A stretch of 64,000 bases of DNA from Dictyostelium discoideum (taxonomy: Eukaryota): assembly GCA_000004695.1 (NCBI GenBank), contig CM000151.3, positions 7,008,001-7,072,000 on the forward strand, given 5' to 3'. The notes under the pieces were generated by a model. It was not told the origin of the DNA, did no database searches, and saw only the letters and a list, made by a program, of their open reading frames with translations. The position numbers were made by a program, and so were the translations under genes. Below are positions 17,300-37,092 of the stretch, in pieces. The stretch's first letter is position 1. Each line of letters begins with the position of its first letter.

Positions 17300-17769
17300 T
17301 TTAAAATATTATTATTATTATTTATTATTATTTATTATTTACTATTTATTATTTACTATTTATTTATTATATTTATTATTTATTTTTATTTATATGTTTA
17401 AGAGGTGTTCCCAAGTTTTTAATAAAATAAAATTCAAAAACAAACAAAAAAAAAATAAATAAAATTAAATAAAAAAAAAATTAAAAAAAAATAAATTAAA
17501 AAAACAAAAAATTAATAAAAAAAAAATAAAAAAAAAAAAAAATAAAATAAAATCTGAGATAGCCACAAATTTTCACAAAACACAATTTCGTGTAAAAAAA
17601 GCTCACATAATTGCAATAAAAAAAAAAAAAATAATAAATATAAAAATAAATTCTAATTTTTTTATATTTTATTTTTAATATTTGGTCGTTCCCTTTTTAA
17701 ATAAATAAGTTTTTTTTATGATTCGTACTTTAATTAATTTTTTATGAATTATTTTTTTTTTTTTTTCTT

Positions 17770-18038
17770 TTAATAGTTTACAAAGTTTGGTCTTGTAAAG
17801 AAAGTTGTTGAACTCTTATTTGAAACAGTATTACATGTTAAATCGAATGAATTTAAATTAGAATCATTTGATGATAATAATGATTTTGATAATGAAACAT
17901 TTGATGATTTATTTGATAATGAAATAATTGATTCTAAAAAATAAATAAAGATAATAATTAATTAGTAAATTGTTTATTAATTTTTTTTTTTTTTATTATT
18001 TTTTTTTTTTTTTAAAAAAAAAACATACTGAATAACAT
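17770..18038 (-). CDS. Micro-gene family copy A (57 aa: MLFKSIISLSNKSS...NKSSTTFFTRPNFVNY), 2 exons (18029..18038, 17770..17933)
   Basis: Exon 1 is ATGTTATTCA plus GTATGT. The acceptor tttatttattttttag| joins a phase-1 exon 2 that ends ...TTC TTT ACA AGA CCA AAC TTT GTA AAC TAT TAA. Confidence 0.55.
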
Positions 18039-19019
18039 TTTTTTATATTTTTTAATTTTATAAATTTATAATATTTATTTTTTAATTGATAATTGATTTT
18101 GTTTTTGGTTTAAATAAAAAAATAAAATTCTATAAATACTTTTTTTTAATTTTTTTTTTTTTTAATTTTTTTGTTTTTTAATTTCCCACACTAAAATAAC
18201 CTTACCTTACCTTACCCCTCCTTTGGTCAACCACTACTAAACTCTAAACAAGAGATATTAAATTTTTTATTTTTTTGAAGGAATTATATGTTGACATACA
18301 AATAAAATAATAAAGTAAATAGATTTATTTCGGAAGTATGATACTAACAAGTACAAGCTTATGATTTTATCATCTTTTAATTATAAAACAGCTTGTTTTT
18401 TTTTTTTTTTATTAATCATTTTTTTATTTTTCACTTTAAATTAATATGATTCTATCATCATTGTTAAATTGAATTTATAAAATAATTGTAACATCATTAC
18501 ATCAAAAAAATCATCATTTAAAATCCTCAATTATTTAATATTAATTAATCAAAGGAAAAAAAAAAATACTTAATTTTCCAATGATACTCACCAGTTTCAT
18601 TGGAAAATTAAGTATTTTTTTTTTCATTTTTGATTATGGTAATTATGAAGTTTTGATGGATGTTTTGATTTAAAAAGGCTACAATAAAAATAAAAAATAC
18701 AACTTAATAATTTTATTTTTTCAATTTTTAATTAAATTTGTAAATCTATTATTTTAATTACTTTCCATTATAATTTTTTTTTTTTTTTTTTTTTCTATCC
18801 AATTTTGTTTTTCATCAAATTTTTAAAAAGAATTCATGGATACAAACATGACAAAATCATTAATACTTCGATAGAAATTCAAGATGAAAAAATTTTTTAC
18901 CTTCATATATTAGTAATAAAAAAAAAAAAAGAGAATTTAATGGTTTTCTTCCTTTTTTTTTTAAATAATTTTCAATACATAAATCAAACTCAAAGAATAC
19001 AAAAACACCAAAAATATTA

Positions 19020-19200
19020 ATAATACCAATATAATAGAATTGATATAAAACCACCAATGGATGACATTAACAAATAATAAATTAATCATTAAAACAGAAT
19101 TAACATGTGTTTCAGATAATCATATAGATATATTAATATTAAATATTAAATTCTCGTCATTCAAGGTGAAAAAATAAAAACATGATTAAACAACAACATT
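19020..19200 (+). pseudogene. Decayed N-terminal fragment of an hspG-type small heat shock protein gene
   Basis: Aligns to 20690-20860 ([21 protein letters not shown]...LIIQGEKK) but carries several in-frame stops and indels. The upstream promoter-like block is retained. Confidence 0.55.
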
Positions 19201-19412
19201 TAATCTTTAATTGGCAAATATTATAAAAAAAAAAAAAAAAAAAAAAAAAAAAAAAAAAATCATTTACAAAAATTAACATATAATAATTCATTTTTTAAAA
19301 GAATATAAAATTATTTTTTTTATTTTATTTTTTATTTTAAATATATTGGTCGGTCCCTTTTTAATAAATAAGTTTTTGTTTTATGATTTCGTACATTAAT
19401 TTTTTTTTTTTT

Positions 19413-19653
19413 TTAAAAGTTTACAAAGTTTGGTCTTGTAAAGTATGTTGTTGAACTTTTATTTGAAACAGTATTACATGTAAAATCAAATGAATTTAAA
19501 TTAGAATCATTTGATAATAATGATTTTGATGATGAAACATTTGATGATAATGAAATAATTGATTCTAAAAATAAATAAAAATAATTAGTAATTTGATTTA
19601 TTTATTTTTATTTATTAATTTTTTTTTTTCTAAAAATACCTACTAAATAACAT
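19413..19653 (-). CDS. Micro-gene family copy B (ends FFTRPNFVNF), exons 19644..19653 and 19413..19564
   Basis: Same structure as copy A: ATGTTATTTA plus GTAGGT donor and ttttag acceptor. Confidence 0.5.
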
Positions 19654-34852: not shown

Positions 34853-35593
34853 TTAGTTAATTTTTGGAATTTTGTTAAGTAATGATTTTAATTTTGGTTG
34901 AGATAAACTAATATGAGAATTTAAGCAAATACTTGGTAATTGGAAGTTTGATGAATCAGCAGATGGTTGGTAATAGTAAAAGTTGGTTAATGAATTACCA
35001 CTTGGTGTGCCATTAGCATTTTGAGCAGATGCCGAGATTAATGAACAATCAGATTTATCAACAAAGAGATATTGATTTGTACTGTTACCTAAAATGCTTG
35101 GATACATAAACAAATCACATTCGACTGAACCTATTTCAGCATCACTAACATACTTTAAATTTTCAAAGATTGGAACAGAGTATGTCAATGTCTCTAAGAA
35201 ACAATATTCATTTCCGTTTAATTCAATATTAACATATTGAGTATTATTTCCATTGAAACCCCAAAGTTTACCTTTAGTTACAGAGTTTTCAGTATCCATT
35301 TCAAAATCAACATACAATTGTCCACCTACAAAATCAATATCAACTGTACCAGATTCCATATAAGATGTTTGAGTAATGTCTCCGTTTGAAGTTGGAGTAT
35401 TTGCATTAAATCCTATTTGAACAAATGAAGTAGAATAACCAGTTGGAAAGTTAGAACTTGATGTAAAACATTGTTGGCCAACTTTATTTTCAAGTTTCGA
35501 AAAATCAACATTATTATTTACACCCAATTTAAGGGATTCACCACAATTGAATGCAATTGTAAAAATTAAAATTAAAGATAATAATAATTTCAT
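34853..35593 (-). CDS. Secreted 246-aa protein, tandem copy 4 (one Q deleted from GQQQCF; C-terminal SHISLSQ variant)
   Basis: Near-identical ORF. Confidence 0.7.
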   Translation of the reverse strand: MKLLLSLILIFTIAFNCGESLKLGVNNNVDFSKLENKVGQQCFTSSSNFPTGYSTSFVQIGFNANTPTSNGDITQTSYMESGTVDIDFVGGQLYVDFEMDTENSVTKGKLWGFNGNNTQYVNIELNGNEYCFLETLTYSVPIFENLKYVSDAEIGSVECDLFMYPSILGNSTNQYLFVDKSDCSLISASAQNANGTPSGNSLTNFYYYQPSADSSNFQLPSICLNSHISLSQPKLKSLLNKIPKIN

Positions 35594-36160
35594 TTAAATG
35601 GTTTATTAATTTTTTTTAATTATTTGTTTTGTAAATTTATTTTTTTTTATTTATTGATTTTAATAATTTAATACTATTTTTTTTTTTTTTTTTTTAATTT
35701 ATACAAAAATTTTTTTAATTATTTGTTTTATAATTAATTGTTTTTTTTTTTGTTTTTTTTACTTTAATTTTCAGTTTTCATTTAAGAATAGAAAAACTTA
35801 AATGATTTTTCTTTAGAATTAATCATCACCATTTGTGATTTGAAATTTTTCAAACACATATTTTTTTTTTTTTATTTTGAAAATAGATATTTTTAGATCT
35901 TTGGTCTAAAAAAATAAGTTGAATAAAAAAGCATAAAACAAATTGCTATGATAAGGTTACAAAATAAAAAACCTTAAAATCCACGTCATTATGTTTTTTT
36001 TAATAATAAAGTAAAACAAAATTACAATTAAAATTTTTTTTAAAAATAATTTTTTTTATTCTTTTTTTATTTTATATATATGGTCGGCCCTTAAATAAAT
36101 AATTTTGGTTAAATGATTCGTCCTTTAATTAATTTTGTGGTTGTTTTTTTTTTTTTTTTT

Positions 36161-36284
36161 TTAATAATTTACAAAGTTTGGTCTTGTAAAGAATGTTGTT
36201 GAACTCTTATTTGATACAGTATTACATGTTAATTGGAATGAATTTAAATAAGAATGATTTGAACATAATGATTTAGATGATACA
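36161..36284 (-). CDS. Micro-gene family copy J, 3' part only; runs into the assembly gap
   Basis: Exon 2 3' end (...TCNTVSNKSSTTFFTRPNFVNY*), interrupted by N's at 36285. Confidence 0.4.
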
Positions 36285-36384
36285 NNNNNNNNNNNNNNNN
36301 NNNNNNNNNNNNNNNNNNNNNNNNNNNNNNNNNNNNNNNNNNNNNNNNNNNNNNNNNNNNNNNNNNNNNNNNNNNNNNNNNNNN
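36285..36384. other. Assembly gap (100 N)
   Basis: Run of n characters in the sequence. Confidence 1.
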
Positions 36385-36546
36385 AATTATTTAGAATCAT
36401 TAATTTCATTTTCATTAAAATCATCTTCAAAATGTGATTCATTGATCTCAGATAATTTAAATAACCCATCCAACCAATCAAATGATACAATTGTTATGAA
36501 GAGTACATCATCTTTTTTTACAAGACCAAACTTTGTAAATTATTAA
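36385..36546 (+). CDS. Micro-gene family copy K (plus strand, 5' end lost in the gap): ...NYLESLISFSLKSSSKCDSLISDNLNNPSNQSNDTIVMKSTSSFFTRPNFVNY*
   Basis: Plus-strand exon 2 with the conserved C-terminus; head-to-head with copy J across the gap. Confidence 0.4.
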   Translation, partial: NYLESLISFSLKSSSKCDSLISDNLNNPSNQSNDTIVMKSTSSFFTRPNFVNY

Positions 36547-37092
36547 AAAAAGAAAAAAAAAATAATTAATGTACGAACTTTTTTTAAAAATTAAATTCTT
36601 TGGGCGACATTTTTAGTAAATTAAATAACCGAATTAAATTTATAAAAAAATAAAAAATACTTTTTAAATTAAAATACACTTTTTTTGAAATTAACCAATT
36701 TCATTTTTTTTAATCTTCTGTTGAATACTTTCCCTATTACTTCTTGATCAATAATTTTCAATTCACCAATTAATGGCAAATGGAAAAAATTAAATTGAAT
36801 AGCCTGAAATAACCTGTGTTTATTTTTTAAAAAATATTTGTTATTAATATTTTTTGTGTGTTGTTGGTGGTGTTTTGTTTAATTGAGATTTTTTAATTGA
36901 TTAGGGAACTAAAATTCTTTTAAATTGTTTGTTTACATAAACATTCCCATTCTTTTATACATGTTTAATTCATATATTCCTCATTAAAAAAATATTAATA
37001 AAAAAAAAAATAAAAAAAACTGATAGGAATAATTATTTTTTTTATATATACAATTTATCATTCGATTTTATTTTTTTTTTTTAAAATACTGA

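Follow-up and report, generated by a model that had tools for sequence, protein, structure and literature searches.

How a run of similar units in a very AT-rich genome comes to carry two unrelated kinds of genes between copies of one short sequence is the question raised by a stretch of Dictyostelium discoideum chromosome 2 (assembly GCA_000004695.1, contig CM000151.3, positions 7,008,001 to 7,072,000 of the forward strand). The whole stretch of 64,000 nucleotides is referred to here as the window, and positions are counted from its first letter. It has a G+C content of about 20%, and its proteins match those of D. discoideum AX4 chromosome 2 exactly. Between 17.6 and 36.3 kb we recovered, by self-BLAST, motif scans and profile scans, ten plus-strand copies of a backbone of about 0.85 kb each, interleaved with hspG genes of the HSP20 type (two intact, two truncated and one promoter relic) and with four ependymin-like genes. 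We consider it about 80% probable that the locus is a lineage-specific tandem array which grew by unequal recombination between copies of a micro-gene carried in the backbone and was shaped by birth-and-death and concerted evolution, with no exchange of cassettes.

An initial annotation of the window had proposed about ten tandem units on a constant backbone ordered as micro-gene, block X and block Y, and both the count and the order stood, as self-BLAST and profile scans recovered ten copies and a motif scan found the landmark motifs repeated in that order. In the self-BLAST the backbone appeared as a family of matches of about 0.8-1.0 kb starting near 17.63, 19.30, 21.29, 22.89, 24.87, 26.29, 28.78, 31.17, 33.56 and 36.04 kb. 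The micro-gene segments started at 17678, 19344, 21323, 22929, 24908, 26331, 28824, 31201, 33597 and 36078 (nhmmer E 1e-45 to 1e-77), and nine X/Y blocks were detected within the array (profile E 1e-32 to 1e-77). The units align over the shared backbone blocks and follow one another head to tail in the same order and orientation, and thus form a tandem array. The distances from one backbone to the next were 1643, 1993, 1592, 2000, 1412, 2494, 2384, 2399 and 2474 bp; the proposed unit length of about 2.4 kb therefore holds for the ependymin units only, the overall spacing being 1.4-2.5 kb, and units 1-4 consist of two copies of a 3.6-kb double unit.

For comparison, loci were obtained by exact-protein look-up from two other D. 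discoideum isolates, S2 (GCA_054859385.1) and S3 (GCA_054859355.1), and from D. cf. discoideum, D. citrinum and D. firmibasis. The assemblies of S2, S3, D. cf. discoideum and D. citrinum most likely come from the Nanopore and Illumina project of Holland et al. 2025 (PMC12745789). As the array ends at a gap of 100 N that cuts unit 10, collapsed or duplicated contigs next to the gap might have produced it artificially, but a collinear array without Ns was found in S2, S3, D. cf. discoideum and D. citrinum. Since S2 and S3 are collinear with AX4 across the array and free of gaps, and since the units differ by 8-22% and hence cannot be collapsed read pile-ups, the chance that the array is an assembly artefact is practically negligible.

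The backbone is no neutral scaffold but one complete, annotated small gene together with its upstream region. The micro-gene lies on the minus strand and has two exons, the first of 10 nt (ATGTTAYTYA) and the second of about 160 nt, separated by an intron of 70-95 nt in the array copies and of up to about 140 nt in diverged paralogues, and its product in the array has 53-57 residues (MLFKSIISLS...FFTRPNFVNY). In unit 1 the model reads ATGTTATTCA followed by the donor GTATGT, a 95-nt intron closing with ...TTTTTTAG, and then AATCAAT through to the stop codon. The plus-strand motif tacatactgaataacattttt is the reverse complement of ATGTTATTCA plus GTATGTA, that is, of the start codon and then the splice donor, while attgattctaaaaa is the reverse complement of the T-rich AG acceptor and the "core" motif encodes on the minus strand ...FFTRPNFVNY and the stop. 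Start codon, GTATGT/GTAAGT donor, T-rich AG acceptor and stop were conserved in eight of the ten array copies, the exceptions being the truncated copy of unit 7 and the copy of unit 10 that is cut by the gap. The same two-exon model also held for the four complete diverged paralogues in the window and for nearly all copies of the second assembly, where an independent 57-aa gene call is identical to the predicted peptide. Besides, the predicted peptides were residue-identical to AX4 DDB_G0276585, 589, 591, 595, 599, 605 and 609 in the array and to 621 and 639 outside it; the AX4 annotation already covers the micro-genes (DDB_G0276585...0276611), and all the array genes are present in it as hypothetical proteins. 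The micro-gene is the most conserved part of the backbone and every internal indel in it is a multiple of three. Both of its strands are open. The plus-strand reading (FTKFGLVK...IIDSKK) was rejected, as it is open but has neither a start codon nor a usable donor or acceptor phase, and its sole annotated counterpart is the 74-aa DDB_G0276753. That protein, encoded outside the window and containing FTKFGLVKNVVELLFETVLHVKSNEFKLESFDNN, is the antisense reading of a micro-gene paralogue and probably represents a strand mis-call in the reference annotation.

All ten copies lie on the minus strand. The gene of unit 1 (17770..18038, 57 aa) rests on the gene model, its exact peptide not being found in the AX4 protein set, while that of unit 2 (19413..19653, 53 aa) is DDB_G0276585, an exact match to XP_643075. 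Units 3 (21406..21649, 57 aa) and 4 (22998..23238, 53 aa) correspond to DDB_G0276589 and DDB_G0276591, respectively. Units 5 (24998..25245, 56 aa) and 9 (33687..33946, 56 aa) encode identical products and account for DDB_G0276595/0276605, and units 6 (26410..26667, 56 aa) and 8 (31288..31529, 56 aa) correspond to DDB_G0276609 and DDB_G0276599. The unit 7 copy (28824..29026) is a pseudogene that covers profile positions 8-217 only, with a frame open only over 28904-28972; a deletion has taken exon 1, the intron and the 5' portion of exon 2, and the end of exon 2 with the 3' flank is what is left. Of unit 10 the 3' part remains before the gap (36161..36284), a partial copy of 40 aa equal to DDB_G0276611.

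With the micro-gene reading on the minus strand, its upstream side is the one that holds blocks X and Y. A conserved TATA box (GTATAAATAGAA on the gene strand) stands 86-98 nt before the ATG (in unit 1 at about 18130, 92 nt), and X/Y extends beyond it, about 140-500 nt upstream of the ATG. The same arrangement, with X/Y about 125-225 nt (usually about 200) past the ATG side of the micro-gene profile and in the same orientation, was observed in AX4, S2, S3, D. cf. discoideum, D. citrinum and D. firmibasis. Among the AX4 paralogues identity reached 96% in exon 2, 97% in exon 1 and the ATG context, 88% in the TATA box, 82% in X2-X3 (2.7% gaps) and 88% in Y1 (no gaps), and 64-72% in the spacers (8-19% gaps); the X2-X3 and Y1 islands also stand out in comparison with D. 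citrinum and D. firmibasis. When the window and a single unit were scanned for tRNAs and Rfam families, no match was obtained (for Rfam, none at the gathering score or at E<=1), and RNAalifold on X/Y gave -2.8 kcal/mol with no structure and no compensatory pairs or covariation. Upstream position, conserved sub-features and the lack of an RNA family or structure together lead us to read X/Y as putative cis-regulatory sequence of the micro-gene.

X/Y might instead be, or might be in addition, a separate plus-strand transcription unit, for example a spliced non-coding RNA, that diverges from a shared bidirectional TATA region. The TATA box does lie between an A-run and a T-run and so reads as TATA plus oligo-T in both directions, the plus strand of X holds donor-like (CAA/GTAAAA), branch-like (TACTAAC) and acceptor-like (ACAAG) motifs about 65 nt apart, and X2-X3 and Y1 are conserved in three species. 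However, the donor GT is absent in units 1 and 6, the TACTAAC is TACCAAC in D. citrinum and D. firmibasis, neither strand holds a conserved open reading frame, and wherever the cargo is ependymin, the transcript would enter that gene in antisense. Given these points and the Rfam and folding results above, we rate a separate transcript as unlikely and retain the reading of X/Y as the presumptive control region of the micro-gene.

The X/Y blocks lie on the plus strand in unit 1 (18174..18536, nhmmer E=5.6e-75), unit 2 (19792..20110, E=1.4e-63), unit 3 (21793..22139, E=2.1e-77), unit 4 (23371..23723, E=1.2e-65), unit 5 (25372..25702, E=2.8e-59), unit 8 (31663..31988, E=1.2e-54) and unit 9 (34054..34397, E=1.1e-66). 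That of unit 6 (26791..27071, +) lacks the X1 part and matches profile positions 55-340 (E=1e-59). X2 (TGTTGACATAC) and X3 (GTATGATACTAACA), located for instance at 18290-18350, are imperfect inverted copies of each other separated by about 40 nt; the pair is conserved across species and could be a candidate binding site for a dimeric factor. Just past block Y of unit 1, at 18548-18625, there is a near-perfect inverted repeat with arms of about 25 bp (...aaatacttaattttccaatga / tcattggaaaattaagtattt...), and units 6, 8 and 9 carry shorter CCAAT...ATTGG palindromes at the equivalent position.

Among the genes between the backbones, the hspG genes occupy the left part of the array, and the alternation of decayed and intact HSP20 genes proposed for units 1-4 was borne out. 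The intact hspG4 (20602..21201, +, 199 aa) matched XP_643076 / Q551G1 exactly and scored 46.3 bits against Pfam HSP20, and a second intact open reading frame of 227 aa (24092..24775, +) scored 41.6 bits against PF00011, so that both pass the HSP20 / alpha-crystallin domain cutoff of 20.8 bits. The two proteins match at 192 of 198 aligned residues, and the poly-Q tract of the second, encoded by a pure (AAC)39 repeat at 24342-24458 (TRF), is 28 residues longer than that of hspG4. The exact 227-aa protein was not found in the protein collection, and the AX4 annotation may lack this copy or give it another model. Units 1 and 3 hold plus-strand truncated pseudogenes that retain the promoter and codons ~30-86. 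In the first (18774..19198), 18774-18989 is 74% identical to the hspG4 promoter and 19031-19198 is 85% identical to coding positions 20690-20858; in the second (22448..22787), 22448-22521 matches the promoter and 22653-22787 is 81% identical to coding positions 20690-20834. Unit 5, for which complete loss of the gene had been claimed, has indeed lost it, but a promoter relic of about 80 bp persists at 26019..26098 (+) as the last of its cargo, with 79% identity to the hspG4 upstream region 20405-20488 (E=9e-11). Such relics were searched for by dust-filtered blastn with a word size of 11, a word size of 7 being swamped by AT-rich noise.

The array hspG genes have 72 homologues, all in group-4 Dictyostelium. 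In the hspG tree a single clade contains the array genes of D. discoideum and D. citrinum; a remote locus of the same chromosome is sister to it, and neither of these two groups includes the D. firmibasis genes. HSPG1 and HSPG2 have been reported to be heat-induced (PMC6584373), and in the literature we found no report on heat or stress induction of hspG4.

The right part of the array holds the ependymin-like genes, four minus-strand open reading frames of 246 aa each at 27596..28336 (DDB_G0276603; PF25544 E=3e-63), 29927..30667, 32401..33141 and 34853..35593, the last three being DDB_G0276601, DDB_G0276597 and DDB_G0276593 by gene order. Pfam Ependymin_amoebozoa (PF25544) was matched over profile positions 1-171 of 171 with E=3.2e-63 and 213 bits, well above the cutoff of 27, and the N-terminus MKLLLSLILLFTIAFNCGES, judged by eye, resembles a signal peptide. 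The initial annotation had described the four copies as more than 97% identical; four opposite-strand copies are present, but their pairwise protein identity is 94.3-98.4% and only one pair exceeds 97%. The ependymin coding sequences group by genome, with the four AX4 copies clustering together, and their synonymous divergence (dS) is 0.05-0.11 between paralogues against 0.08-0.13 between positional orthologues, with a ratio of nonsynonymous to synonymous divergence (dN/dS) of 0.1-0.5. The backbones adjoining them show the opposite pattern, orthologues being closer than paralogues. Because paralogue dS is below orthologue dS while the flanking backbones behave the other way round, the ependymin coding sequences appear to have been homogenised by gene conversion limited to the gene, under purifying selection, and their high similarity would reflect these two processes and not youth. 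In S2, unit 7 (L001 12667-14275) is annotated as a predicted 265-aa chimera in which ependymin residues 1-212 are joined to micro-gene exon 2 (...YFQLP/KSIISLSNK...FFTRPNFVNY).

As to the age of the array, the initial annotation had described a recent and repeated cassette amplification in which hspG was replaced by the gene for the secreted protein within a constant backbone. Some observations agree with that account, in that two different genes do occupy the same slot in a shared ordered backbone, hspG-type and ependymin-type units intermingle on the backbone tree (for example, u1-u9 share 86% and u8-u9 82%), and the ependymin copies are 94-98% identical. The backbones, however, are not the near-identical units that recent amplification would leave. 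AX4 backbone paralogues are 78-92% identical (mean 83%), positional orthologues 92-95%, and the backbone trees cluster by position and not by genome, the pairs u5/h6, u6/e0, u8/e3 and u9/e4 each having 100% bootstrap. The hspG double units are younger (u1-u3 87%, u2-u4 89%), about the age of the isolate split. Neither was a sign of cargo replacement found: the dust-filtered word-11 search detected no hspG remnant in the ependymin units, whereas unit 5, having lost its hspG, keeps one, and both cargo types already stand on the same sides in D. citrinum as in D. discoideum. With the likeness of the ependymin copies explained by gene conversion, as the dS values indicate, we hold recent cassette swapping to be very unlikely, and both the recency and the replacement of cargo are abandoned here. 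The other part of that account, unequal crossing-over in a birth-and-death array, is upheld by the hspG pseudogenes, the truncated micro-gene and a copy number that varies among isolates.

The other genomes place the growth of the array in time. Ten backbones are visible in AX4, at least 13 in S2, five in D. cf. discoideum, four in D. citrinum and one in D. firmibasis. S2 has at least three intact hspG genes, and the five backbones of D. cf. discoideum are accompanied by one intact hspG and two relics, with no ependymin gene within 20 kb. The D. citrinum locus reads, in the same orientation, proline-rich gene, hspG, backbone, hspG, backbone, ependymin, backbone, ependymin, backbone and an inverted diverged micro-gene, and its backbones share a mean of 78% identity with those of D. 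discoideum, being about as distant as paralogues. At the orthologous site of D. firmibasis there are the myosin gene, two diverged micro-genes, one unit of X/Y and micro-gene and the proline-rich gene, and neither hspG nor ependymin. The mixed layout of D. citrinum, the single unit of D. firmibasis and the hspG tree together suggest that the array was most likely assembled after the split from D. firmibasis and before that from D. citrinum.

The micro-proteins form a family with 34 detectable homologues, all of group-4 Dictyostelium. AX4 has about 25 members, nearly all on chromosome 2; others occur in D. firmibasis, D. citrinum and D. cf. discoideum, with a single one in D. purpureum. The members share two exons, a 10-nt first exon, a product of 52-58 aa, an MLFKS N-terminus and a C-terminal FTRPxF motif. 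In the family alignment a conserved N-terminus MLFKSLISLSNK is followed by a variable Ser/Asn-rich middle and by FTRPxF, in which F, T, R, P and F are invariant. An exhaustive profile search of 1.84 billion representatives found no relatives outside the family, and the micro-proteins had no Pfam match. AlphaFold run with the family alignment predicted no secondary structure and no fold (mean pLDDT 62, pTM 0.15), which suggests that the micro-protein is probably disordered. For 12 of the gene identifiers no paper mentioning them was found.

Diverged paralogues outside the array lie at 36385-36546(+), 37093-37343(-), 38443-38688(+), 61335-61630(-) and 62220-62520(-), namely DDB_G0276649, 619, 621, 641 and 639; they share 35-58% protein identity with the array copies, and the complete ones have the 10-nt first exon and an FFTRPNF C-terminus. 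A weaker match to the micro-gene profile occurs at 60674-60839. Around this micro-gene cluster at 57-63 kb there are also local repeats, 57161-57425 with 60401-60656 and 57990-58173 with 62428-62617, one of them inverted, at 89% identity, and the region suggests a second, smaller and rearranged cluster that is syntenic with a cluster of D. firmibasis (L004).

A short unit of about 0.85 kb in many copies, with diverged copies outside the array in both orientations, could recall a mobile element, either a non-autonomous transposon or a gene-capturing element, which spread together with its cargo, and the hspG part of S3 does contain a DDE_Tnp_4 transposase gene. That gene (L003 16810-19143, 703 aa, HTH_Tnp_4 / DDE_Tnp_4) is found in S3 only and is a private transposon insertion, and the arrays of AX4, S2, D. 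citrinum and D. firmibasis hold no transposase. The backbone ends show no terminal inverted repeats, only A/T low-complexity matches, outside a single region of chromosome 2 and the syntenic clusters of sister species the family hardly occurs, and the unit itself is a conserved, intron-bearing protein-coding gene. A mobile origin of the backbone is hence highly improbable, and local duplication of a gene with its upstream region remains the preferred account.

Changes after the assembly of the array were also apparent. Inversion of the X/Y block in unit 7 had been proposed, and the block does lie on the opposite strand (29472-29758, -). It is carried by an AX4-specific inversion at 29081..29754, bounded by a T24 tract (29057-29080) and an A47 tract (29755-29801), whereas unit 7 of S3 is uninverted and flanked by T23, just past the TATA box, and A35. 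These borders suggest that, in the AX4 lineage, inverted homopolymer tracts recombined or a template switch took place between them. The unit 7 micro-gene of S2 has lost exon 1 and the TATA box through a deletion different from that of AX4.

At the right-hand end, the assembly gap noted earlier occupies 36285..36384 (100 N). At this point the gap-free S2 and S3 hold about 3.4 kb more, which complete unit 10 and add an X/Y block, part of an ependymin gene (aa ~155-246) and an eleventh micro-gene with X/Y; the inverted diverged micro-gene found after the AX4 gap comes next. Given this additional sequence, the AX4 gap probably conceals about 1.5 further units and AX4 would have 11 backbones. The inverted diverged micro-gene (36385..36546, +, partial, DDB_G0276649), the first outside the array, marks its right-hand end and likewise follows the array in S2, S3 and D. 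citrinum, with a class-I myosin gene close by on the right (38886-41513). The left end is marked by a proline-rich gene of 81 aa (17054..17299, -; MGHHHHY...PPSYY), which is kept beside the single unit of D. firmibasis. Further to the left, at 15841-16134, lies a fragment of a gene of the CfaA/B/C (counting-factor-associated) family, and this fragment and the proline-rich gene occur in the same order in D. citrinum.

The history that we propose starts from an ancestor, shared with D. firmibasis, in which one unit would have stood between the proline-rich gene and the class-I myosin gene. The micro-gene would have duplicated locally, leaving the diverged copies that surround the array in both orientations and form clusters elsewhere. 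Before D. discoideum and D. citrinum parted, a duplicated hspG and a gene of the ependymin type may have come to lie between micro-gene copies. Unequal homologous recombination between the micro-gene units of about 0.85 kb would have multiplied the genes enclosed by them, giving two kinds of unit, one of micro-gene and hspG, in which one hspG decayed before the 3.6-kb double unit was amplified, and the other of 2.4 kb with micro-gene and ependymin. Afterwards the backbones would have diverged slowly in place while two hspG genes were truncated, one was reduced to a promoter relic and one micro-gene was truncated, with gene conversion, inversion and changes of copy number also following the amplification.

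Several points weigh against parts of this history and of the gene model. The D. citrinum backbones pair with no particular D. discoideum backbone and monophyly of the D. discoideum complex has a bootstrap of 42%, which makes any order of the early duplications tentative; the trees are neighbour-joining trees on AT-rich, indel-rich DNA, and the single unit of D. firmibasis could possibly reflect loss of an array. In the micro-gene both strands of exon 2 are open and the third codon positions coincide, and since the codon-position test cannot pick the strand, the strand call relies on the start, splice and stop signals and on the annotation. The micro-genes are presumably expressed, the sole hint being the name 'expressed protein' given to the homologue in D. 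purpureum. A promoter role is one that we infer for X/Y. Next to the diverged micro-genes of the window the profile scan detected nothing resembling X/Y, and 5' of those in the other D. firmibasis cluster it matched weakly (18-29 bits).

It is conceivable, and in our view quite unlikely, that X/Y acts as a bidirectional module which also co-regulates the neighbouring gene, or that the micro-proteins are processed into peptides for signalling or defence and, as their family expands locally, drive neighbouring genes to amplify with them. The hspG genes are transcribed divergently from the X/Y micro-gene unit, and a bidirectional X/Y would, if real, couple the micro-protein functionally to stress and secretion genes. 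The peptide idea draws on the invariant N- and C-termini, the fast-evolving Ser/Asn-rich middle, the roughly 25 clustered paralogues and the restriction to group-4 Dictyostelium.

The locus thus offers a clean and datable case of how an array arises and persists in a eukaryotic genome very rich in A+T, with one unit in D. firmibasis, four in D. citrinum and 11-13 in D. discoideum, and displays in one place the divergence of backbones, gene conversion limited to the cargo, pseudogenisation, inversion mediated by homopolymers and polymorphism of copy number. It also supplies a correct gene model for Dictyostelium-restricted proteins of about 55 aa, of which the roughly 25 in AX4 were annotated only as hypothetical, and this unnamed micro-protein family is the most novel part.

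Textbook tandem families include the multi-gene histone repeats, duplicated hsp70 genes homogenised by gene conversion and segmental duplications mediated by low-copy repeats. The present array resembles them in its homology-bounded units, polymorphic copy number, pseudogenes and relics, gene conversion limited to some members and inversion between inverted repeats; it differs in that the recombining repeat is a tiny protein-coding gene with its putative promoter, and in that two unrelated genes were amplified between the copies, giving an hspG side and an ependymin side. Another parallel lies on the same contig of S2, about 0.5 Mb from the array (L009), where five hspG genes alternate with three opposite-strand GNAT acetyltransferase genes in units of about 3-3.9 kb with 85-97% identity. 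This cluster too consists of interleaved two-gene tandem units with hspG on the plus strand and the partner opposite, on the same chromosome, but hspG is its constant member, GNAT the partner, and micro-gene and X/Y are absent, which shows that such interleaved units arise repeatedly in this genome without a special backbone. Ependymin-related proteins (EPDRs) have been reported in three dictyostelids, and in metazoans the family expanded in tandem, with clustered copies grouping in trees (PMC6280359). The likeness is the multiplication of EPDR-family genes by tandem duplication, the proteins of the present array being putatively secreted; the copies described here differ in alternating with an unrelated micro-gene, and the survey in PMC6280359 does not report this array. 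The resemblance to integron-type cassette arrays, where a constant element alternates with variable genes, is superficial, as the present locus is a eukaryotic chromosomal one with positional orthology and lacks an integrase or recombinase, attachment or recombination sites, and any sign that cargo was exchanged. The array is what unequal crossing-over, birth-and-death and concerted evolution ordinarily produce, and calls for no new mechanism; what it adds to the known systems is the recognition of the backbone as a gene with its presumed promoter, the definition of the micro-protein family, a dated array history and a prediction of what the assembly gap contains.

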